Source of the DNA: an uncultured delta proteobacterium
GTDB taxonomy: Bacteria; Myxococcota_A; Polyangia; Polyangiales; Polyangiaceae
Assembly (NCBI GenBank): GCA_963696385.1
Contig: CAVOKF010000007.1
Coordinates: forward strand, 768,001 to 832,000
Direction of reading: 5' to 3'
Length of the DNA: 64,000 nt
In this document: positions 46,831-62,497 of the stretch, piece after piece
Layout of the letters: every line of letters starts with the position of its first letter
Position numbering within the stretch: the stretch's first letter is position 1
Notes under the pieces: generated by a model
What the model saw: only the letters and a program-made list of their open reading frames with translations
The model's database searches: none
What the model was told of the DNA's origin: nothing
Position numbers and translations under genes: made by a program

Positions 46831-48282
46831 ATGAAGCGCATTGCCATCGCGGTCGTCGGTCTAGCCACCGCGTGCGGTGGCAGCAGCGGTGAAGAGACCA
46901 GCGGGGGAGCCGATGCGGCGAGCGACCGGCTCGCCGCTCCGCTCGTCGAGTCCGGCGCCGGTTCGACGGGCGCCGATGCCGATGCCGAAGTGGCCGATGC
47001 GGCCGAAGCGGCCGACCCGTGCGCGGACGCCGGGGTGCCGCCGAGTACGCTGGCCTGCACCGGGCTCTATTCGGACTTTGCGACCCTGACCCTGTCGCCC
47101 AACGCGCAGGCGTATGCTCCCGCGGTCCCCCTGTGGTCGGATGGCGCCACGAAGGAGCGTTGGATCGAGCTTCCGCCGGGCCAGCAAATCGACGTGAGCA
47201 ATCCGAACGAGTGGACGTTCCCGGTCGGAACGAAGCTTTTCAAGCAGTTCACCTACGAAGGGGTGCGCGTCGAAACGCGGATGTTTCAAAAACTCGACGC
47301 CAATCCGAGCTACTGGGTCTACGCCACCTACGCCTGGAATACGGATCTGACGGAAGCCACGATCAATTACGGCTCGACCGTACCCGTGGGCGACGACGGT
47401 GGCACCTGGATCATCCCAACGAACGACGATTGCCTCTACTGTCACGAGGGAAGACAAGATCGCATCTTGGGGTTCGAGCAAGTCTCGCTCGGTCTCAGTG
47501 GGGCAACCGGGCTCACCCTTCTGCAGCTCGTCGTGCAGAATCTCGTCACGCCGCCGCCGACCCAGGTCAATCTATTCATCGGCGACGACGGGACCGGGCT
47601 CGATGGCCCAGCCCTGTCGTGGCTGCACATCAACTGCGGCGTGACGTGCCACAACGCGAACGAGAGCGCGCAAGCCTACGCGGCGGGGATGCTCTTGCGG
47701 CTGGATCCGACGCAGCTCAATGGGTCGCCCGCGACGACGACGAGCTGGAACGACTTGAATACGACGATCAACGTACCGTGCGTTTCGGGCAGCGTTGCGG
47801 GCACACCCCGCATCCAGCCCGGAGACCCGGACGCGAGCGCGATTGTTCAGCTCATCAGCGAGCGCGGCATTCTTCAAATGCCCCCGATCGCATCGCGGTT
47901 CGTCGACACGACCGATGTCGCCTCGGTCGTGGCTTGGATTTCCCACATGCCCGGCGTCGACGCGGGCGTCGAGGCCGGACCCGTCGCCGACGCGGCCAGC
48001 GAGAGCGGTTCCGACGCAACGGTCCCGGCGGACGCGAGCGACGGCAGTCTAACCACCGACGCCCTTTTGACGACGCCAGACTCCACGACGCCGGACGCCA
48101 CGTCGACGCCAGACTCCACGACGCCGGACGCCACGTCGACGCCAGACTCCACGACGCCGGACGCCGCCTCCTCACCCGACGCGGAGGAGGACGGCGGCGA
48201 GCCCGACTCCGCAGAAAACACGGCGGAAGCGAGCGAGGACGGCGGCTATGCCGACGACGCCAACGACGGGGGAACGGATTGA
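46831..48282 (+). CDS. Lipoprotein, probable diheme c-type cytochrome (SO2930-like)
   Basis: Lipobox ATAC; PLWSDGA.KER, FPVGT..K.F, VETR; CLYCH (47431-47445) and CGVTCH (47635-47652); MPP distal-ligand-like motif. Confidence 0.75.
   Translation: MKRIAIAVVGLATACGGSSGEETSGGADAASDRLAAPLVESGAGSTGADADAEVADAAEAADPCADAGVPPSTLACTGLYSDFATLTLSPNAQAYAPAVPLWSDGATKERWIELPPGQQIDVSNPNEWTFPVGTKLFKQFTYEGVRVETRMFQKLDANPSYWVYATYAWNTDLTEATINYGSTVPVGDDGGTWIIPTNDDCLYCHEGRQDRILGFEQVSLGLSGATGLTLLQLVVQNLVTPPPTQVNLFIGDDGTGLDGPALSWLHINCGVTCHNANESAQAYAAGMLLRLDPTQLNGSPATTTSWNDLNTTINVPCVSGSVAGTPRIQPGDPDASAIVQLISERGILQMPPIASRFVDTTDVASVVAWISHMPGVDAGVEAGPVADAASESGSDATVPADASDGSLTTDALLTTPDSTTPDATSTPDSTTPDATSTPDSTTPDAASSPDAEEDGGEPDSAENTAEASEDGGYADDANDGGTD
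48071..48165 (+). repeat. 33-bp coding tandem repeat (TPDSTTPDATS) x3
   Basis: CGACGCCAGACTCCACGACGCCGGACGCCACGT, essentially exact copies. Confidence 0.9.
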
Positions 48283-52140: not shown

Positions 52141-52836
52141 TTAGACGCCCGTGCCCGTGCCCGTGCCCATGCCGGTCCCCGTTCCCATGCCCATACCGGT
52201 CCCTTTTCCCATTCCCTTGCCGGTGCGGGTTCCGGTTCCCTTGCCCGTGCCCTTGCCCTTTCCGCCGCCGGTGAAGGTCGATGTGCCGCCACCCATCCCG
52301 GCCCCGGTAAAGGTCGACGTTCCCATGCCGCTGCCACCGCCCCCCCCTGCCACGCACTTGGCGAAGGCCCCACCACCGCCCTTGCCCTTGCCACCTTTGC
52401 CGCCGCCAGTGAAGGTCGACGTCGAGGTCGCTGTCGCGGCGCCCGTTTCGAGGGAGGTGCAGGTCTCCGTGCCCCCACCCATCCCCATCCCCATCCCGGT
52501 GTTCATCCCCATCCCCATCCCGGTGTTCATCATCCCGGGGGGCGTACCGGCGTCGTCGCCCTCGTTGGGGTTGGTGTCGGTGGCAGGTCCCGTGTTCTGC
52601 CCGCCCGCGCCAGAGTCCTCCTCGGGAGGAGTCGTGACCGTGCCGGGGTTGTTGTTCTGAGCGGGGCCGGTGTTCGTGCCCACCGCGCTGCTCGACGACT
52701 GGTTGTTGGGCTCGACGGTATTGCCCGAATCTTCAGTTCCCTGGTCACCCGATATCGTCTCCGTCGATGAGCCACCGCACGCAATCGTCGAGGCGAGTGC
52801 CAGCGAAACCAACCCCGGGACCTTCAATTTTCTCAT
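52141..52836 (-). CDS. Low-complexity Gly/Thr/Met/Lys-rich lipoprotein
   Basis: AAAGGTGA upstream of ATG 52836; lipobox TIAC; GC3-rich codons; TSTFTG x3, (GM)n and (GT)n tracts. Confidence 0.7.
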   Translation of the reverse strand: MRKLKVPGLVSLALASTIACGGSSTETISGDQGTEDSGNTVEPNNQSSSSAVGTNTGPAQNNNPGTVTTPPEEDSGAGGQNTGPATDTNPNEGDDAGTPPGMMNTGMGMGMNTGMGMGMGGGTETCTSLETGAATATSTSTFTGGGKGGKGKGGGGAFAKCVAGGGGGSGMGTSTFTGAGMGGGTSTFTGGGKGKGTGKGTGTRTGKGMGKGTGMGMGTGTGMGTGTGTGV

Positions 52837-53496
52837 GTCATCACCTTTTTTTGCCGACGTGCGGTTTGCCGCGTCAATCGATTTTAGCGTGTCGTCAGGG
52901 TCCACGCGAGCCGTGCCCCCAGAGTCCTCGGCCGTCAGTACCGTCACCCCCGCGCGACAAGGCAACCAGTGCAACGAGATGGCAGAGGGGCGACTGCACC
53001 TCGGCCGCAAGCCACCGCCAACCAAAAGCCGGGCGCGGCTTGCGATTGAGCCGAAAAACGCGCGACAGCGCACTCCATTTCGATAGGACACCCGCGCTCT
53101 TGCCCAAGTCACGGCCCGGTTCACGATAGCCCATTCGCCCGACGTTACGCCGGGCTGCCCGTCGGGACGGAACGAGAAGCATTCGCCCCCCGCTTCTTTT
53201 CAATCTTCCTCGACGAGCCGGCCGAGGACCGGTGACAAGGATGGTGCCACGGAAAAAATCCGACCCTGACCCGCAACTTTGCAATCATCGCGGTTCGCGC
53301 TTTTTTTTCCCTGAAACGCGGAAACCGCGACGTCCCCCCGATTCGCATAAGCCTTCGTCCGGCGACACTCACCCACGCACGCGCCTTCGGCCGTTGTTTC
53401 CATTTTTTCACGTTGCGTCGAGTCCAATGCCGCAACCGATCCAGACTCACCGGACGCGCGGAGCCGATCGCGCGGCCTGTCGAGGGTCGCGCCGTC

Positions 53497-53550
53497 CGGT
53501 GACCGAAGGCCGCGATCGCCGGGGAAACCTGGACCTCGCGGCGGTCGCCG
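53497..53550 (+). other. Extended hairpin with GAAA tetraloop in a divergent intergenic region
   Basis: Stems CGGTGACC/GGTCGCCG, GCCGCGA/TCGCGGC and CCGGG/CCTGG; the G-U pairs work only on the + strand. Confidence 0.4.
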
Positions 53551-53667
53551 TAGCTGGCGGCATGTCGGCGTAATTTCCAATGTTTCCCTTCTTTTGCACT
53601 CCCGCATGCAGACTACCCAGTACCTAGGCGTCCGACATCGACGCCGACGATTCGGAGTGATTCACGC

Positions 53668-54510
53668 GTGAGGCTATCGCTCAGTACCTGTCGCACTCTC
53701 CTGCTCATCACGGGTGTCGCTCTGTACGGATGTTATTCCGGCCTCGCACTCGACGACGACGGCGGTGCGTCGGAGCCAAGCGGTGGCGACGCCGCAGTGG
53801 CCAGCTCGAACACGAGTCGCGCGAGCGCGGGATCCGCCGTCTCGGCCTCGTCGTCAACCGGTTCGACCGTCGGGAACGCAAGGAGCGGATCGAGCGCGGC
53901 CGCGTCGACGGCGGGCGGCTCGTCGGCGACCTCCGGCGCAGCCTCGAGCGACGTTTCGCCCGCGGGGGACGCGTCGCTTCCCGGAAGTTCGTCGTCGAGC
54001 CGAGGCTCATCGTCCGGAAGCTCGGCGATCGATGGAGGCTCGTCGTCGAGCCTGGGATCCGGCTCATCGTCGTCGAGCAGCGCCGCAGCCGTCGACGCCG
54101 CAGTTTACGTGTACGACACACCGGTCGAATGCAGCAGCGGCAAGATGTACACGGGGGGCACCGGCCCGACCATGGAGCCCGGGTTGAACTGTGCGGAATG
54201 CCACGGCGGAACTCTTTCGATCGACGGCACGGTCTACAAAACCGGCCACGAACCGGACGGCTGCGACGGGGTCAATGCGACGGGCTTGACCGTCGTGATC
54301 ACGGACTCAACGAACGACAAAATTACGCTCACGCCGAATTCTGTGGGAAATTTCTACTATCTTCCGTCAATTTGTCCGCCCATTACCGCGACGGTCACCT
54401 ACAATGGGAAAACCACAGCGATGACGACGCCGCAGATGGTCACCGATTGCAACAGCTGCCACACCGAGGAAGGCGCCAACGGAGCGCCGGGCCGGATCGT
54501 CCTTCCTTGA
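53668..54510 (+). CDS. Lipoprotein with Ser-rich tether and small diheme c-type domain
   Basis: Lipobox LYGC; about 120-aa Ser/Gly/Ala linker; MEPGLNCAECH (54190-54204) and DCNSCH (54448-54462); GAPGRI. Confidence 0.8.
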   Translation: MRLSLSTCRTLLLITGVALYGCYSGLALDDDGGASEPSGGDAAVASSNTSRASAGSAVSASSSTGSTVGNARSGSSAAASTAGGSSATSGAASSDVSPAGDASLPGSSSSSRGSSSGSSAIDGGSSSSLGSGSSSSSSAAAVDAAVYVYDTPVECSSGKMYTGGTGPTMEPGLNCAECHGGTLSIDGTVYKTGHEPDGCDGVNATGLTVVITDSTNDKITLTPNSVGNFYYLPSICPPITATVTYNGKTTAMTTPQMVTDCNSCHTEEGANGAPGRIVLP

Positions 54511-54572
54511 ACCTGGACTCCTGCGCCCGGGCGTGAGAGTAGGGACGTGGGATTTTAGAGGCCCGCTTTTCC

Positions 54573-55802
54573 ATGTCGATTCGTTCTGCGTGGCGGTGGT
54601 GGACGCACTTCGCGATCGTCCTCGGTGCCGTCGGGTTTGTACTCACTTGGTCGTCGGCGGCGCACGCGTACCCGTGGATGATCCGGCACGGGTACACGGG
54701 ATGCAACGCGTGCCATGCCGACCCGTCGGGCGGCAGCTTGCTGACGCCGTACGGGCGCGCGCAGGGAGAGCTCTTGCTGCGCACGCGCTACGGCAGCGAG
54801 CTTCAGACCCAAGATCCCGGTGACATCGGCAACTTTCTCTTCGGCGCCGTGACGCTGCCGGATTCGCTCTTGCTGGGGGCGGACATTCGGGCCGCGGAAT
54901 ACGACGAGGCGATCCCCGGCGCCCCTCCCGTCACGGAACTCATCTGGATGCAGGCGGACCTGGAAGGTCAGGTGACGATCGCCGACCGAATCCGTCTGAA
55001 TGCGTCGGTCGGGTACGTCCCCCAAGGCGACTTGCCCGATTCGCTGACGAGATCGGGAACCGATAACCTGATCTCGCGCGTTCACTGGGTCGGGGTGGAT
55101 CTCGGCGCCGACAAGGATTGGACGCTGAGGGCGGGCAAGATGAACTTGCCGTTCGGCATTCGATCGGTCGAGCACACCTACTGGGTTCGAACCGCCACCG
55201 GCACGGACATCGACTCGACTCAGGAATACGGCGCCGCCGCCGCGTACAACGGCAACTCGCTGCGCGGCGAATTGATGCTCATCGCGGGCAACTTCGAGGT
55301 CTCGCCCGATGATTTCCGCCAGCGCGGGTACGCCGGGTACGTCGAGTGGGCGCCGATCGAGAAGCTCGGGGTCGGGGTGAGCTCGCTCGCCACGCATACC
55401 GCCGACGACATCACGCTCCTAACGCCCGCTTGGCGACAGGCGCACGGCGTCTTCGGGCGCTATTCGCCGTTACTGCCCCTGGTGATCACGACGGAATGGG
55501 ACGCGACGATCGTGTCGCAGCCGGCCACGGCGACCATCGCCGCAAAAAGCACGCTGGGCTTGGCCGGGATGCTGCAAGCCGATGTCGAAGTCCTGCAAGG
55601 CGTCCACCTGAGCACGACCGGCGAGTTTCTGAACTCGGATCTTTCCGGCATGCCCTCCTCCTTCGGGTGGTGGGCGACGGCATGGTGGTTTTTCGGACCG
55701 CACATCGACTTGCGAGCCGATGCGATTCTTCAAAACCTGCCGAGCGGCTCGACGCGGACGTCGGCGACGACGTTGCTCGCACAGCTTCACGCTTTTCTCT
55801 GA
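54573..55802 (+). CDS. Outer-membrane beta-barrel with N-terminal monoheme motif (Cyc2-like architecture)
   Basis: Signal peptide AHA, then YPWMIRHGYTGCNACH...LTPYGR; RAGKMNLPFG porin-type motif; amphipathic strands; ends QLHAFL. Confidence 0.75.
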   Translation: MSIRSAWRWWTHFAIVLGAVGFVLTWSSAAHAYPWMIRHGYTGCNACHADPSGGSLLTPYGRAQGELLLRTRYGSELQTQDPGDIGNFLFGAVTLPDSLLLGADIRAAEYDEAIPGAPPVTELIWMQADLEGQVTIADRIRLNASVGYVPQGDLPDSLTRSGTDNLISRVHWVGVDLGADKDWTLRAGKMNLPFGIRSVEHTYWVRTATGTDIDSTQEYGAAAAYNGNSLRGELMLIAGNFEVSPDDFRQRGYAGYVEWAPIEKLGVGVSSLATHTADDITLLTPAWRQAHGVFGRYSPLLPLVITTEWDATIVSQPATATIAAKSTLGLAGMLQADVEVLQGVHLSTTGEFLNSDLSGMPSSFGWWATAWWFFGPHIDLRADAILQNLPSGSTRTSATTLLAQLHAFL

Positions 55803-55983
55803 TCCCCGATGCCTGCCCCCCTCAGCGCAAGCGCGCGGCGAAGATCGAGGCGCTGCGCGCGTTGCAGGGGCTACGCGGGCGATCGCCCAGGTATGGCGTG
55901 CCCCGCGACAAGAACGGGCCGACCCGGGGGGTGGCTTTGGATCGCGCTGACCCGTCCGATCGGCACCGCGCGCGTCCGACGCA

Positions 55984-56490
55984 TTAGGCGGCGTTTGGCC
56001 CAAACCGCCGGCGTGCGAACCAGAGCCCAAAGACGGCGAGGAGCACGGCGCCGGTGACTCCCTCGCCCTGCCCGTGCACCGCTGCCGGCGCGAGCCCACA
56101 GCCGTAAAGAGTCTTCGGGGCGTCGAGCAAGATCTTATCGAGATTCGGGTTGGTGCCGCTCGTGATGTCGGCAATGAGCGGCCCGTAATACCCGTTGGCT
56201 TGGATGGCCGTAATGGCTTTGCAGGCGGTCCCCGCTCCCTGGTACGGCAACGCTCCGAACGCATACATCAGCGTGCCAAAATCGGACATGGGCAGGTTGC
56301 CCCCCGCATTAACGTGGCAAAGCTGGCAGCCAATGGGCGGAAACTGCATTTCGACCGTATCGCTCCCCGTCAGGTTCAGACAGGTGTCGACGTCGTGGGG
56401 AAACTCCGGGGTCGCGCGCGCGATCGACGCCGATGCCAGGGCACCGAGGAATGCGAGCGTGGCGAGCGTGGCTTTCGGCGCGTCGTTCAC
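55984..56490 (-). CDS. Exported monoheme protein with MYXO-CTERM-like anchor
   Basis: GTG at 56490, signal peptide ARA; CQLCH (56314-56328); tail GC...hydrophobic helix...RRR. Confidence 0.7.
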   Translation of the reverse strand: MNDAPKATLATLAFLGALASASIARATPEFPHDVDTCLNLTGSDTVEMQFPPIGCQLCHVNAGGNLPMSDFGTLMYAFGALPYQGAGTACKAITAIQANGYYGPLIADITSGTNPNLDKILLDAPKTLYGCGLAPAAVHGQGEGVTGAVLLAVFGLWFARRRFGPNAA

Positions 56491-56657
56491 TTCGGGGTCC
56501 TTCTGGCGGCGGCGAGCGCGGGTGCAGCGGCGGCCGCATCGGCGCCGAGGACCGTAACCCAATCGCCCCGAAAGTATAGATGCCGTCGCGCCGCGCGTCC
56601 ATATGAGCTGAAACGGACGTGAGAAGAGGGACGAGCCCCGACCCCGACCCGCGAATC

Positions 56658-59568
56658 TCATTTCCGAAGAGTTGCGCTTGCCTCGGCATCGTAATACTTG
56701 GTCGCGAGCGCAACGGCGTCGAGGCCCACGTGGTGGCCCACTCGGCGTCCCGCGAAGTCATCGGGCGCGATGTGGATGCTGCCCCAAAGGCGCGATTGCC
56801 CCGCTTCGTCGGATGCGTCGTAGTACGACGCCCACTGCAGGCGCACGTCCGTAGTCGGCCCTTTTTCGAACGTCAGGAACGTGTCCTTGTGGGCGACGAA
56901 CTCGCCAAGGCCGCCGGGAAAGTACGGGCTCCCGGTCAGGCTTGCGAGGACCTCGGCTCCCGCGCGGCTAAACGTACTGTGGCCGGAGATGAAGCCGGGA
57001 AACGCGGGCGTCACGAACGTGCGCCGCTGGTAGGTGATCCATTCCACGGCTCGGACCCATCCCACGCCGGAGACCTGATGAGCGCGATCGCCCGGCTCGC
57101 CCAGCCAATCGCGCACGGCGATCTGACCGACGAACGGCGCTAAGGCGGCGTGCCGCTCTCCGGGTGCGCTGCTCTCCTTGGTGATGACTTCGATCCATCC
57201 TGGAACGAGCGGCAGCCCATCGGGGTCGTAGGATGGGCCGTTCGGGTCGGACGACTGCCCCTTGCCTCCCATCCAGCGCACGAGCGAGATCGGACGCACG
57301 GTCGTAAAGCGGCGCTTGATATCCCACGCGGCGATGGCCGCGTCGTGCTCGGCACCGTTGAGGGCGAGGTAGACGTGCACGTCCCACGCCAGCGGATCGA
57401 TTGGATCGCCCTTTCCGAACAGGCGCCGCTCGACGCCCGGGGTGTCGCTGACGGCGTTGGCGATCGTGTTCCAGTGGCCCGGCGGCGTCTCCGAATTCGG
57501 CCCGTCGGCCCAGAATTCGGCCATGACCCTCGCAAAGTCGGCTCTAGGGACCACCTCGGGTGGGTAGGCCTCTCCGGTCACGGGGTTTTTGGCCCAGCCC
57601 TTCCCGTCGTTGGCTCCGAGTGAGTTGTGTCCGTAAGCGCCCGGCGAAATATCGATGGTCGTGGGATCGGACGGGTCGACCGCAGCGGTCTTACGAATCA
57701 CTTCCACGATCCAGGATTTCATATCCGCGCCCACGCGCGGACATGGACCCGGATCGCGCCACGGCACGGCGTTGGAGGATCGTCTCAACGCGAAAGGGGC
57801 CACGTCTCCCCATTGCGCGCCAACGTACGTCTGCACGCCCGCCGGCAGGATGATGCCGTTCTGCGTGGCGGCGAGCGAAAGATTGAGCGGCTGCCAGCGA
57901 TCGGGATCCTTGAGCGAAGCGCCCAGGCCGTCGTACAGGAGTGGCTGGTTGGGGGCTTTGTAGTCCGAGGGGTCCGCATAGTCGTCGGCTTCGTTCGCGC
58001 CGTCGGCGGCGGTCTTCGCGATGACGGTGTGGCCGACACGGTTGCCGAACGCCACGGGATCGTCGCCGGTGTCATGAACGTCGTCGGGGTCGTAGCCGAG
58101 ATCGGACATGACCGCGCGCAAGCAAGCCAAGGTCGTGCTGCCTCCGACGGCTGAGCGGTAGCGGTGCGTCAGGACGTCGTACGCGGCGTAGCTGATGGCG
58201 GCACGCCGGGATCGGTCCACGTCGTGCGACGCGTGCCGCTCGCGCACGAAGACGCCGTTGGCCGTGCGGTCGTATCCCGCCCACGCGTCCCACATCGCGG
58301 CCGAAACGTGAAAGAGATTGCGCGCGTGGACCGTGGGCCTCGGCAAGTCGAGGCGAATGGCGGCGAGGGCCTGTTCGTCCCAGCGTCTCGCGATCGATCC
58401 GTTCTTGCCGGCGGCCACGACGGAGGCCGGACAGACGACCTCGGCCCCCGCATCGGGCGGCACCGGGTCGTCGGCGATCACGACGGGCGGAACGGCAGAC
58501 CCGTAGTGCACGAGCATCCCGCCGTCGAGCGCCGGACTCAGCACGTTGCCGCCCGCGAACCACACGCCACCGGTGTCGTCGACGAAAATGGAGTGAAGCG
58601 ACGAGGTCGCGGGCAGCGCCAAGCCATGATCGACGGCGGCAAAAGCGGCCCCGGACGAGCGCGCGCGGGTGTAAATGGCGCCTCGTTCCCCACTCGCCCA
58701 GTCGCCGCGATCCGTCGCGAAAACGCCTTGCAGCAGCCCGACCCCCGGCGGAGACGCGTCGCGGAAGACCCCGTTGTCGGCGTCGAGGAGCACGCCGTTG
58801 CCCGCGCCGCCCACGGCGATCACCCGATCGCCGACCCCGTGGACCGTGAAGAGCGTGTCTTTCGTCGACGTGGGGACCACCCTGAACGGAGATCGCCCCG
58901 TCCGGTGCAGGATGGCCCCGCCGGCGCCGACGACCCAGACGTCCGCGCCTTGGCCCCAGACCTTGAAAAACCCGGGGGTCTCTCCGCTGGACATGCGCGG
59001 AACGTCGAGCGGAACGGTCTCCGATTCGAACCCGCCGTCGTGGTAGTGCCAGATGAACCCATTTCGCCCCGCCGCGCTCCCGACGGCATAGAAGTTACCG
59101 CCGTCCGTCCCCCAGACTCCGTAGACGGTCTGCCGTCCCAGACCGGGCGTCGGCATGCGATCGAAGTGTCGGCCATCGTACCGGAGGACGGTCGCGCTGG
59201 TTCCCGCCATCAAGACGGGCCCATTCCGTAGGGCCTGCACCCACCACAGGTCGCCCCGCCCTCCTGTATGGAATCTCACTCCATGCCTTGCCGTCGAAAT
59301 GAAGAACGAGCGGACCGTGGCCCTTGTCCGCCCCCACGGCGTAGATGTCGTTGGGAGAGCGCCCGCTCACCGAAAGCATCGCCGCAGGCAGTTCGCTCGC
59401 CAGCAGTTGCCATTGTCGCTCCGTGGCCTGCACCTCGGGCAACGCGTCGTGCTGGCAGCCCAGGATCCCGCCGAAGGCAGCGCCGGTGGCGACGGCCGAT
59501 GCGACGACGGCCCCGGCCATCCATCGGAGGCCTTTTCGCGGATCCGCCGCGTTCGTGACGCTCGTCAT
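56658..59568 (-). pseudogene. Lipoprotein: beta-propeller-like repeats fused to a vanadium-dependent haloperoxidase (PAP2 superfamily), with a one-base frameshift near 59268
   Basis: Lipobox ILGC and first repeat lie in ORF 59095-59568, the rest in ORF 56658-59279; K-X6-RP (KRRFTTVRP), PGFISGH and SR-X5-H-X3-D are intact. Confidence 0.8.
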
Positions 59569-60817: not shown

Positions 60818-60862
60818 GAGGGGCAGGTGGGGCTTGATGCACGCTGCATCGTGGAGGGTCTC

Positions 60863-62497
60863 ATGAATCGATCGGCAGCCGCTTTGGGAGTTTCTGTGGC
60901 GACGTCGGCGCTTGCCTTCGTTGGGGTACACGATGCAACGGCGTGCGGGGGGTGCTTTCACCCACCCACGCAGACGGTGACCGACATCACCGACGAACGC
61001 ATGCTGCTCGCGGTATCGCCGACGCAATCGACGCTTTACGATCAGATTGAGTATTCCGGTTCCCCCGCGTCCTTCGCTTGGGTTCTGCCGATCCATGGAA
61101 CGGTGACCGTGGGCCTCAGCGCCGACGTGCTGTTCGACTCGATCGACGCCGTGACGGCGACGCAGATCACGCCACCCCCACAGAATTGCCCGTTTCCAGC
61201 GGGCTGCGCTTTCCCCGTTGCCACCGCTGCCGTGGGAGCGGCCAGCAACGGCGCGGCCGAGGGCTCCGTGACGGTGCTCAAGCAGCAAAACGTGGGGCCC
61301 TACGCAACGGTGCAGTTGCAGGCGAGCGACTCGAGTGCCCTCAACAACTGGCTGATGCAAAACGGGTTCAACATCCCCGCCGCGGTCTTGCCGGTGATCA
61401 ACGCGTACATCAGCGAGGGGTTCGATTTTCTCGCAATGAAGTTGTTGCCGGGCGAGGGCGTCCAAGCGATGCGACCCGTGCGCGTCACGACGGCCGGGTC
61501 TTCACTCTCTCTGCCTCTCCGCATGGCCTCCATCGGGACGGGCACTCAGGTCGGGATCAAGATTTGGGTGGTCAGCGATGGACGGTACGAACCACAGAAT
61601 TTCCCGTTCTTTCATATCGACGACAGCCAGCTCGTATGGGACTGGAGCACCAACTCGAGCAACTACACGACGCTCCGAGCGGCCGACGAGGCCGCGCTCA
61701 ACTACACGGGCTGGGAAATCGAGAGCTCGCTCGAGCTCAACGAGCAGATCATCACAGGTGTCATCCTGAGCGGCGGCCAATACTACGGCAATACCCTCGG
61801 GGGCGGAGGCCTCGCAGCTCCGCCGCCCTCGGATCCGAGCATCGACTACCTGCCGGTGGGCGATCCGGACGCCGGTACCGATGGCGGCGCCGACAGCGGC
61901 GACTTCGAGTCCGCCGAAGAGGTGAGGACCGAGGACGTCAACGCGCTCTTTGCGGGATTGACCGGACCGAGTGTGCGCGTCACGCGGATGCGAAGCGACA
62001 TTTCCCACGCCGCCATGACGACCGACTTCGTGCTCCAAGCGTCCGCGGATCAGTCGGAACTTTCGAACATCCGCTACGTGACCCAAAGCGTCAACTTGCA
62101 ATGTCCCATCTACGGCCCGACCTGCAGCGTCGTCGGGACCGGAACAGCGGCCGAGGCCGCCGCCAGCGGACCCGATGGCGCGATCTCTTCCGCGACATCC
62201 GGCGCAGGGGTCGACGCCAGCGTCGCGGCGAATGGGGGGTCGGCGGACGCGAGCCCTTCGAGCGCTCAGTCCGGCGTCACGGCGGACGCGAGCGTCCCGA
62301 CGAATTCGGGCGCGGGGGCGAATGGGCTCAGCGGAGGCTCGCGGGTTGAGCCAGCCGGCACCCCGGCGGCGAGCGGAGGCGGCTGCGCGGCAGCGCCGCA
62401 AGGCACCGGGTCGGCTGCAGGCCTCGGATTCGGGGCGGGCCTGATGGGACTCGTGGCAGCGCGAGTCGTGCGGCGGCGGTCGTCCAAAAAGGCGTGA
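60863..62497 (+). CDS. DUF2330-like exported protein with MYXO-CTERM-like anchor (copy 1)
   Basis: ACGGCF, FAWVLP, VGPY, WL..NGF, FLAMKL, LPLR; tail GGGC...TM...RRR. Confidence 0.85.
   Translation: MNRSAAALGVSVATSALAFVGVHDATACGGCFHPPTQTVTDITDERMLLAVSPTQSTLYDQIEYSGSPASFAWVLPIHGTVTVGLSADVLFDSIDAVTATQITPPPQNCPFPAGCAFPVATAAVGAASNGAAEGSVTVLKQQNVGPYATVQLQASDSSALNNWLMQNGFNIPAAVLPVINAYISEGFDFLAMKLLPGEGVQAMRPVRVTTAGSSLSLPLRMASIGTGTQVGIKIWVVSDGRYEPQNFPFFHIDDSQLVWDWSTNSSNYTTLRAADEAALNYTGWEIESSLELNEQIITGVILSGGQYYGNTLGGGGLAAPPPSDPSIDYLPVGDPDAGTDGGADSGDFESAEEVRTEDVNALFAGLTGPSVRVTRMRSDISHAAMTTDFVLQASADQSELSNIRYVTQSVNLQCPIYGPTCSVVGTGTAAEAAASGPDGAISSATSGAGVDASVAANGGSADASPSSAQSGVTADASVPTNSGAGANGLSGGSRVEPAGTPAASGGGCAAAPQGTGSAAGLGFGAGLMGLVAARVVRRRSSKKA

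Follow-up and report, generated by a model that had tools for sequence, protein, structure and literature searches.

Cyc2 is the main genetic marker for calling iron oxidation in metagenomes, and in the current view the sole substrate of Cyc2-type proteins is dissolved Fe2+ entering the pore. The published definition of Cyc2 combines a signal peptide, one CXXCH motif, a 16-strand porin resembling OprO/OprP, and two motifs around the heme site: AXPXFAR[Q/K][T/Y] before it and PXL after it (Keffer 2021, PMC8406198). Sequences without the upstream motif were excluded from the Cyc2 tree in that paper, in which Cyc2 of Mariprofundus PV-1 is given as a shown c-type cytochrome; Acidithiobacillus ferrooxidans is another Fe(II) oxidizer with Cyc2. 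Here, we analyze a stretch of 64,000 nucleotides (nt) from an uncultured delta proteobacterium of the Polyangiaceae (contig CAVOKF010000007.1), hereafter called the window. It encodes a fused monoheme cytochrome-porin, open reading frame B (ORF B), together with a diheme lipoprotein upstream (ORF A) and a small monoheme cytochrome downstream (the partner) that has a C-terminal tail of the MYXO-CTERM type. A fused heme porin with an adjoining, surface-tagged small cytochrome suggests compact electron transfer over the outer membrane.

The porin and its partner are laid out in the window as follows, with lengths in amino acids (aa) and the basis of each assignment in brackets.

54573-55802, + strand: ORF B, fused monoheme cytochrome-porin, 409 aa (ORF list, alignment, structure model, HMMER search, Foldseek).
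54573-54668, + strand: Sec signal peptide of ORF B, residues 1-32, predicted cleavage between AHA and Y (from sequence).
54669-54758, + strand: heme module of ORF B, residues 33-62, YPWMIRHGYTGCNACHADPSGGSLLTPYGR, with CxxCH at 54702-54716 (alignment A1, hhalign).
54858-55799, + strand: 16-strand beta-barrel of ORF B, about residues 96-409 (AlphaFold2, Foldseek against the Protein Data Bank, PDB).
55984-56490, - strand: partner, monoheme c-type cytochrome, 168 aa, GTG start at 56490, CxxCH at 56314-56328, convergent with ORF B (hmmsearch, alignment A3).

ORF B joins a CxxCH motif directly to a predicted porin barrel. Its N-terminus reads MSIRSAWRWWTHFAIVLGAVGFVLTWSSAAHA followed by YPWMIRHGYTGCNACHADPSGGSLLTPYGR, after which about 315 residues are modeled as a barrel by AlphaFold2. 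The CxxCH occupies residues 44-48, 12 residues past the predicted cleavage site. A preliminary description of this DNA had reported the same order (signal peptide, CxxCH motif running to LLTPYGR, then barrel-like sequence) and had proposed structure prediction as a check on the barrel; both the ORF list and the model agree with it. The AlphaFold2 model, built on a 29-sequence alignment, has a predicted local distance difference test score (pLDDT) of 75.2 and a predicted template modeling score of 0.74, with 16 strands assigned by DSSP over residues 99-408. Its top Foldseek matches in the PDB are 16-strand porins: OmpT 6ehe (E 2.7e-12), PorB, OmpF, and OprP 2o4v (E 1.3e-9). When solved structures were searched by sequence with a profile of the 29-sequence alignment, no chain matched at E≤10, and ORF B matched no NCBIfam family at E≤1.

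These matches could also be read as an ordinary solute porin of the OprO/OprP kind, whose N-terminal heme would be a redox-sensitive plug or sensor with no role in an electron path. Such a protein would explain the fold match to OprP, the weak match to the Pfam family Porin_O_P (PF07396; E 7.2e-4, residues 143-270), and the fact that one homolog of ORF B is labeled by NCBI as an OprO/OprP family porin. However, the Pfam score of 19.3 bits is under the gathering cut-off of 20.9, and OprO/OprP porins share the 16-strand barrel with ORF B but have no heme module. The strict coupling to a second cytochrome described below would not be expected of a gated solute channel either. We therefore regard a gated solute porin as very unlikely.

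The heme module is the best-conserved part of the ORF B family. A word-seeded search returned 909 homologs, and an exhaustive HMMER search returned 1187 representatives at 50% identity (E≤0.001). Among 29 aligned homologs (alignment A1), the CxxCH and 60-odd other columns are invariant in 29/29, and the A-x-A cleavage site just ahead of the heme motif is kept throughout. The invariant residues of the module are M36, Y41, C44, C47, H48, A49-G54, L56-T58, and Y60-R62, and the family consensus is A-Y-[A/P]-W-M-I-R-H-x-Y-x2-CxxCH-A-D-P-S-G-G-x-L-L-T-x-Y-G-R, in which P is often A. Among the listed representatives, 99 have 360 aa or more, and in 97 of these the motif lies within the first 150 residues; of the remaining two, one is a misjoined or extended frame and one is cut at the N-terminus. 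Such invariance places the observation beyond chance, and conservation of the CxxCH, which had been put forward as a check on the preliminary description, is thus borne out.

Longer homologs carry up to about 200 acidic or Lys-rich low-complexity residues between the heme module and the barrel, so the module behaves as a unit tethered to the barrel. Four homologs of 520-584 aa (P0213, P0238, P0244, and P0251) have an insert of about 100-200 residues with a recurring FDSFDSF. A further homolog, P0268, was considered as a YceI-porin fusion and rejected, since both of its ends look frameshifted or misjoined.

The family appears to be myxobacterial. A motif-seeded scan of one genome per species yielded 206 loci, 80 of which were kept, all Myxococcota by record title. 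The organism names encountered are all myxobacterial and include the cultured Labilithrix luteola DSM 27648, Minicystis rosea DSM 24000, Archangium minus, and Cystobacter fuscus. Because several cultured carriers exist, the idea of an electron path is directly testable. A protein atlas search found only Myxococcota clusters and one Thermodesulfobacteriota cluster, in which 12% of members have Porin_O_P. Among 401 evenly sampled Myxococcota genomes, the porin is present in 45 (E≤1e-20), including 19 of the 29 in the window's own taxonomic family and a patchy remainder. The window's genome itself holds two full copies.

The most conserved partner of ORF B is a monoheme cytochrome that is absent from the preliminary description. 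We compared 82 loci, namely the 80 retained, the window, and the second copy in the window's genome; one of them (L001) is a near-identical relative of the window. Since the 80 were picked from the 206 by motif patterns and best score, all neighbor counts describe this subset only. Members of the partner family are monoheme proteins of about 150-190 aa (roughly 165 aa) that sit beside the porin in 74/82 loci. They lie directly downstream on the same strand in 70/82; if the count is restricted to the 77 loci whose downstream sequence extends for at least 700 nt, the figure is 70/77. The window's partner was recovered at E 2e-13 by hmmsearch with a profile of the other loci's downstream genes, built without the window copy, and AAGGA lies upstream of its GTG start.

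Co-occurrence of porin and partner is nearly complete in the 401 sampled genomes. The partner profile matches 48 genomes at E≤1e-8, 41 of them strongly (E≤1e-19). All 41 strong genomes are porin-positive, and the two genes are adjacent in 40, the exception being a fragmented assembly. The seven weak genomes (E 1e-10 to 1e-8) are all porin-negative: six match the tail only, in frames of 808-1582 aa, and the seventh matches at positions 13-114 in a 452-aa frame. Conversely, four porin-positive genomes are without the partner, three of which have distant porin matches only (E 1e-24 to 1e-30) while one is 88% complete. These counts are given without statistics, as related genomes are not independent. 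Strict coupling to a surface-tagged cytochrome would be new for Cyc2-type proteins.

The partner family ends in a MYXO-CTERM-type tail. Its alignment (A3) comprises a signal peptide, A-T-P-x-F-P, an invariant P-x(1-3)-CxxCH, G-T-x-x-T-P-F-G, and usually a DSDGDG calcium-binding-type repeat, followed at the C-terminus by an invariant Gly-Cys, a hydrophobic helix, and an Arg cluster. The invariant residues are P51, C55, C58, H59, F71, G130, and C131. MYXO-CTERM sends TraA and MXAN_4924 to the cell surface via myxosortase and type II secretion, and the tested clients in Myxococcus are lipid-anchored surface proteins (Guo, Haft and Wall 2025, PMC11980579). The partner resembles these two proteins in its Gly-Cys, hydrophobic helix, and Arg cluster, although the window copy is not recognized by the hidden Markov model (HMM). 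We scanned seven partner copies for the tail, using the sorting-domain models TIGR03901 and TIGR03382. One passes the MYXO-CTERM model (L061, 22.5 bits against a cut-off of 20), one passes GC_trans_RRR (L009, 17.1 against 15.85), two fall just under the cut-off (L078, 19.6; L003, 17.6), and three have no match. Both copies of the window's genome lack any NCBIfam match at E≤10, yet they end in YGCG or HGCG, a hydrophobic stretch, and RRR. The word cytochrome is absent from the two MYXO-CTERM papers searched for it, PMC11980579 among them.

By the published membership criteria, the ORF B family is a sister family and not Cyc2; from the sequence comparisons, ORF B is quite probably a remote homolog of Cyc2. 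As the preliminary description had proposed, the architecture is Cyc2-like: in both, a signal peptide precedes a single CxxCH, which falls no more than about 12 residues into the mature protein, the porin that follows has 16 strands and an OprO/OprP-like fold, and the total length is about 400-450 aa (ORF B, at 409 aa, is within the limit of at least 365 aa). The motifs differ. Where Cyc2 has AXPXFAR[Q/K][T/Y], ORF B has A-Y-P-W-M-I-R-H-G, and four residues past the CXXCH, where Cyc2 has PXL, ORF B reads H-A-D-P-S-G-G-S-L-L, with Pro at +3 followed by S-G. Across the family, F-A-R-[Q/K]-[T/Y] is replaced by M-I-R-H-x and PxL by ADPSGGxLL. Shared between the family and Cyc2 are Ala at the cleavage site (-1), Pro at +2, and Arg at +6, which is six residues before the first Cys, all at identical spacing, as well as LTx[F/Y]GR after the heme site. 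Not shared are F-A, Q/K, T/Y, and the PXL spacing. The suggestion that a diverged FARQ motif marks a family separate from classic Cyc2 is thus upheld, with the heme modules linked by profile-profile comparison.

For that comparison, a Cyc2-type reference set was obtained by scanning metagenome contigs with the back-translated AXPXFAR[Q/K][T/Y] motif. It contains 60 full-length proteins of 423-529 aa with the pattern A-[VL]-P-S-F-A-R-Q-T-x3-CxxCH-(3-5)-P-E-L-T-P-[FY]-G-R, 31 of which form alignment A2. Canonical Cyc2-motif proteins are abundant in these contigs (at least 120 stretches), with full-length genes in 60 of the 80 loci examined (L084-L163). The hhalign comparison of A1 with A2 gave a probability of 94.9% (E 4.2e-8, 54 columns) and, with signal peptides removed, 93.9% (E 1.5e-7, score 37.0, 29 columns). 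As controls, comparison of the ORF B module with two unrelated CxxCH profiles gave scores of 22.3 and 26.6, and 1 of 200 column shuffles with the CxxCH fixed reached 37.0 (mean 25.9, standard deviation 8.8).

Several results weigh against this relationship. The Cyc2 module itself scores 31-33 against those control CxxCH profiles, so the margin of the link, though real, is modest, and the link spans only about 30 columns, those of the heme module. The barrels of the ORF B family and of the Cyc2-motif proteins do not match significantly (hhalign E 0.099), HMMER cross-scores between the family and the Cyc2-motif profile are at most 19.3 bits and confined to the N-terminus, and the 31-protein Cyc2-motif profile found no match in the window's genome at E≤0.01, ORF B included. 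A link this short would also suit convergence, with CxxCH motifs that bind metal or form a disulfide and hold no heme. However, the CxxCH is invariant including its His, its setting parallels that of the c-type cytochrome Cyc2 of PV-1 (Keffer 2021, PMC8406198), and three neighboring gene families also carry an invariant CxxCH. We find a heme-free locus scarcely credible.

Cyc2 has also been called in related taxa. FeGenie-type Cyc2 calls in Myxococcota genomes are reported in one preprint, and deltaproteobacterial Cyc2 sequences appear in the tree of a 2025 paper; both could be canonical Cyc2. Since the published definition requires FAR[Q/K][T/Y], the whole myxobacterial family described here would go unrecognized by it. 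A partner of the MYXO-CTERM type, to which the ORF B family is coupled, is not mentioned for Cyc2 in the accessible text of Keffer 2021 (PMC8406198). Likewise, no description of the ORF B family or of a MYXO-CTERM cytochrome was found in the accessible literature on Cyc2, fused cytochrome-porins, MYXO-CTERM, and Myxococcota porin-cytochromes. The partner's own G-T-x-x-T-P-F-G after the CxxCH resembles the P-E-L-T-P-F-G-R of Cyc2, and the partner profile (A3), when compared with the Cyc2 module by hhalign, gave a probability of 77% (E 2e-5, 25 columns). The partner's heme domain may therefore be related to the Cyc2 heme module.

The likeness to Cyc2 raises the possibility that the locus also works like Cyc2. 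Dissolved Fe2+ would enter the pore and be oxidized by the porin's heme, with a partner that is inner-membrane-anchored or periplasmic as the immediate acceptor and ORF A as another. The similar heme-module motif and the 16 strands of both barrels agree with this, as does the modeled position of the Cyc2 heme on the periplasmic side, from which electrons pass to periplasmic carriers (Keffer 2021, PMC8406198). Furthermore, the window's partner has no MYXO-CTERM HMM match, and the working model of MYXO-CTERM sorting includes an inner-membrane-anchored intermediate (PMC11980579). However, most partner copies in A3 have the tripartite tail, and of the seven scanned, one passes the MYXO-CTERM model and one GC_trans_RRR, even if two are just short and three have no match; the tested clients of the tag are surface proteins (PMC11980579). 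The organism names encountered include no known iron oxidizer, and FAR[Q/K][T/Y] is missing. A Cyc2-like mode of action, although unlikely, deserves consideration.

ORF A is an accessory rather than a dedicated partner of the porin. It lies 62 nt upstream of ORF B in the same orientation, a gap and a gene (co-oriented lipoprotein, Ser-rich tether, two CxxCH) that the preliminary description had given exactly, as the ORF list and a composition count confirm.

53668-54510, + strand: ORF A, lipoprotein, 280 aa, with lipobox Cys22 (...GVALYGC), a tether, and a C-terminal diheme domain of about 136 aa (ORF list, composition).
54100-54510, + strand: diheme domain of ORF A, with CxxCH at 54190-54204 and 54448-54462 flanking a beta-sandwich core (alignment, AlphaFold2).

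The tether spans 119 residues, of which 44 are Ser, 24 Ala, and 19 Gly, and the two CxxCH are residues 175-179 and 261-265. Both are invariant in 42/42 aligned sequences, and among 49 homologs of ORF A the C-terminal domain alone is common. In the AlphaFold2 model of the domain (pLDDT 70.9), six strands form a beta-sandwich, and the two heme sites flank it. Foldseek found no PDB match at E≤0.001, and the best VIA-align matches (Z 5.8) are transthyretin/carboxypeptidase-regulatory-like sandwiches, which are generic; we therefore name no fold family. As modeled, the domain resembles neither class I nor c3/c7-type cytochromes.

The preliminary description had paired the porin with this lipoprotein and had proposed a neighborhood survey across Myxococcota. 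Our survey retains the pairing in part. An ORF A-like diheme domain occurs within 6 kb of the porin in 27/82 loci, and an ORF A-like gene lies directly upstream on the same strand, within 1.6 kb, in 22/82, while the dominant neighbor is the monoheme cytochrome. In the sampled genomes, the domain is present in 87/401, including 22 of the 45 porin-positive genomes; counting against a fixed pairing, 65 of the 356 porin-negative genomes also carry it. The window's genome has five copies, the other four (46-66% identity) being at C7:833968-834363 (-), which is about 2 kb past the window's end, and at C7:1301733, C5:482253, and C5:1062902. Its frequency without the porin and its five copies in one genome are what mark the domain as accessory.

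The slot upstream of the porin is variably filled. YceI-like proteins lie upstream in 37/82 loci; two tested against PF04264 scored 68.2 bits (L005) and 59.1 bits (L008) against a cut-off of 23.7. In the window, no YceI-like gene lies closer than 6 kb to ORF B, and a literature search for Cyc2 together with YceI found nothing. Scoring each locus for YceI, diheme, and partner genes in turn, we found none/none/yes in 30, yes/none/yes in 19, yes/yes/yes in 13, none/yes/yes in 12, and other combinations in 8. Within the 30 loci that have neither YceI nor diheme genes, 18 upstream ORFs from 18 loci were scanned and no conserved family emerged: they encode a permease, AAA ATPase, kinase, ATP synthase delta, or response regulator, FecR once, or give no match. 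The minimal unit is therefore porin plus partner.

The second cassette in the window's genome, at C5:1222555-1223745 (-) (L082), has its partner directly downstream in the usual order. The gene upstream of it encodes a lipocalin (PF08212, 119.5 bits) that also has a tail of GC, helix, and RRR. YceI has a lipocalin-like fold, and on that footing the gene upstream would often encode a lipid-binding barrel protein.

The observed architecture, conservation, and co-occurrence of the two genes, together with the remote similarity to Cyc2, can be assembled into a mechanism; heme attachment, the partner's place at the cell surface, protein-protein contact, and the course of electron flow (its direction and its substrate) are what we infer from them. 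We lean, a little beyond even confidence, towards a cassette that forms a compact electron path through the outer membrane, fed optionally from the periplasm by ORF A. The conserved functional unit would be two genes, the cytochrome-porin and the roughly 165-aa monoheme cytochrome with its MYXO-CTERM-type tail. ORF B would hold one c-type heme on a module of about 30 residues at its mature N-terminus, joined by a variable linker to the 16-strand porin, and this tethered heme would lie at, or inside, the barrel's periplasmic opening. The partner, if sorted along the MYXO-CTERM route, would stand on the outer face of the outer membrane. The two hemes could then make up a minimal redox path across that membrane, which periplasmic carriers would feed or drain. 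In the window the putative carrier is ORF A, whose diheme beta-sandwich on a disordered tether could sweep the periplasm; elsewhere the slot may be taken by a YceI-like lipid-binding protein or by nothing conserved. Electrons might be exchanged with Fe(II), Fe(III), Mn, or humic substances in the soil and peat habitats from which the sequence is known, and metal redox is a plausible function. We favor this compact path because the MYXO-CTERM route would put one heme outside and one at the barrel's periplasmic end.

The proposed logic is that of MtrCAB, PioAB, MtoAB, and Geobacter Pcc, which likewise have an outer-membrane barrel with cytochromes on its periplasmic and outer faces. MtrC is a lipoprotein that serves as the lipid-anchored outer cytochrome. 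In those systems the barrel has 26 strands, the count for MtrB, and forms a sheath around a distinct decaheme protein (Keffer 2021, PMC8406198). In contrast to MtrAB/Pcc, the cassette has 16 strands, a heme module fused to the barrel, and two hemes in total, or four with ORF A, as counted from the genes. ORF B is thus not a large barrel enclosing a separate multiheme cytochrome.

Other results tell against the compact path. Residues 23-88 of ORF B, including the heme module, have pLDDT <50 in the AlphaFold2 model. The window's own partner is divergent: it has no DSDGDG repeat and no MYXO-CTERM HMM match, and it lies on the strand opposite to ORF B. Furthermore, a 16-strand pore is modeled as too narrow for a cytochrome to span (Keffer 2021, PMC8406198), so direct heme-to-heme transfer to a surface protein would need a special, putative geometry. 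A bolder reading, which we offer tentatively and consider doubtful, is a minimal wire of an as yet undescribed type, in which the heme is tethered inside the 16-strand barrel and the surface lipid-anchored cytochrome docks on the barrel or reaches into it. Soil and peat myxobacteria could in this way make direct electrical contact with extracellular iron, manganese, and humics using 2 hemes against 20 or more in MtrCAB, with diheme lipoproteins and YceI/lipocalin proteins as interchangeable periplasmic connectors.

A surface redox protein that adjoins a small-solute porin might instead serve iron acquisition: the surface cytochrome would reduce extracellular Fe(III), and Fe2+ would move inward via the porin, outside any respiratory role. 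A FecR-like anti-sigma factor is encoded directly upstream in one locus (L057). However, FecR was seen only that once among the 18 upstream ORFs scanned, conserved iron-uptake or regulator genes were not seen, and the invariant heme module on the porin is left unexplained. We judge iron acquisition to be decidedly unlikely. If the ORF B family is redox-active, widespread soil, peat, and wetland bacteria carry an uncounted outer-membrane electron path, and a partner outside the cell could extend Cyc2-type proteins to insoluble or macromolecular substrates.

The window is represented in environmental sequencing data. It occurs in 14 DNA runs labeled as soil, peat, or wetland metagenome (share of words 0.23-0.77), and contigs of four RNA libraries match it at 90-99% identity. 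The junction of ORF A and ORF B is crossed by RNA-library contigs in 3/4 runs, from relatives that are 90-95% identical. One contig of 4010 nt covers 53645-55865 and 55984-56556 and thus also includes the partner gene; others cover 53989-55290 (1306 nt) and 54379-54779 (401 nt). This is compatible with expression and co-transcription of ORF A and ORF B in relatives, although RNA libraries can hold DNA and a contig over two genes is not proof of a single transcript. A promoter and terminator scan of 53100-56800 was uninformative, with three terminator-like sites against 3.4 expected.

Other genes in the window lie around this locus. The 873-aa product of 56658-59279 (-), whose gene lies 168 nt upstream of the partner cytochrome on the same strand, matches DUF6851 (63 bits) and a VCPO second helical-bundle domain (31.1 bits), pointing to a vanadium haloperoxidase or an enzyme resembling acid phosphatases. 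Because just 3 of the 81 clustered loci contain a member of its cluster, this VCPO-like neighbor was set aside as a functional clue. A second protein with two CxxCH, a 483-aa lipoprotein-like protein with a Thr/Pro/Asp-rich repeat tail, is encoded at 46831-48282 (+); it scores 117.8 bits against TIGR03806, a model of the SO2930-family diheme cytochromes, far under the cut-off of 313.3. Between them, 52141-53124 (-) encodes a predicted 327-aa lipoprotein with long GMGTG/GKG low-complexity repeats and no Pfam or NCBIfam match. Finally, 60827-62497 (+) encodes a DUF2330 protein (105 bits) whose C-terminus, with GGGC..., a hydrophobic stretch, and RRRSSKKA, looks MYXO-CTERM-like.

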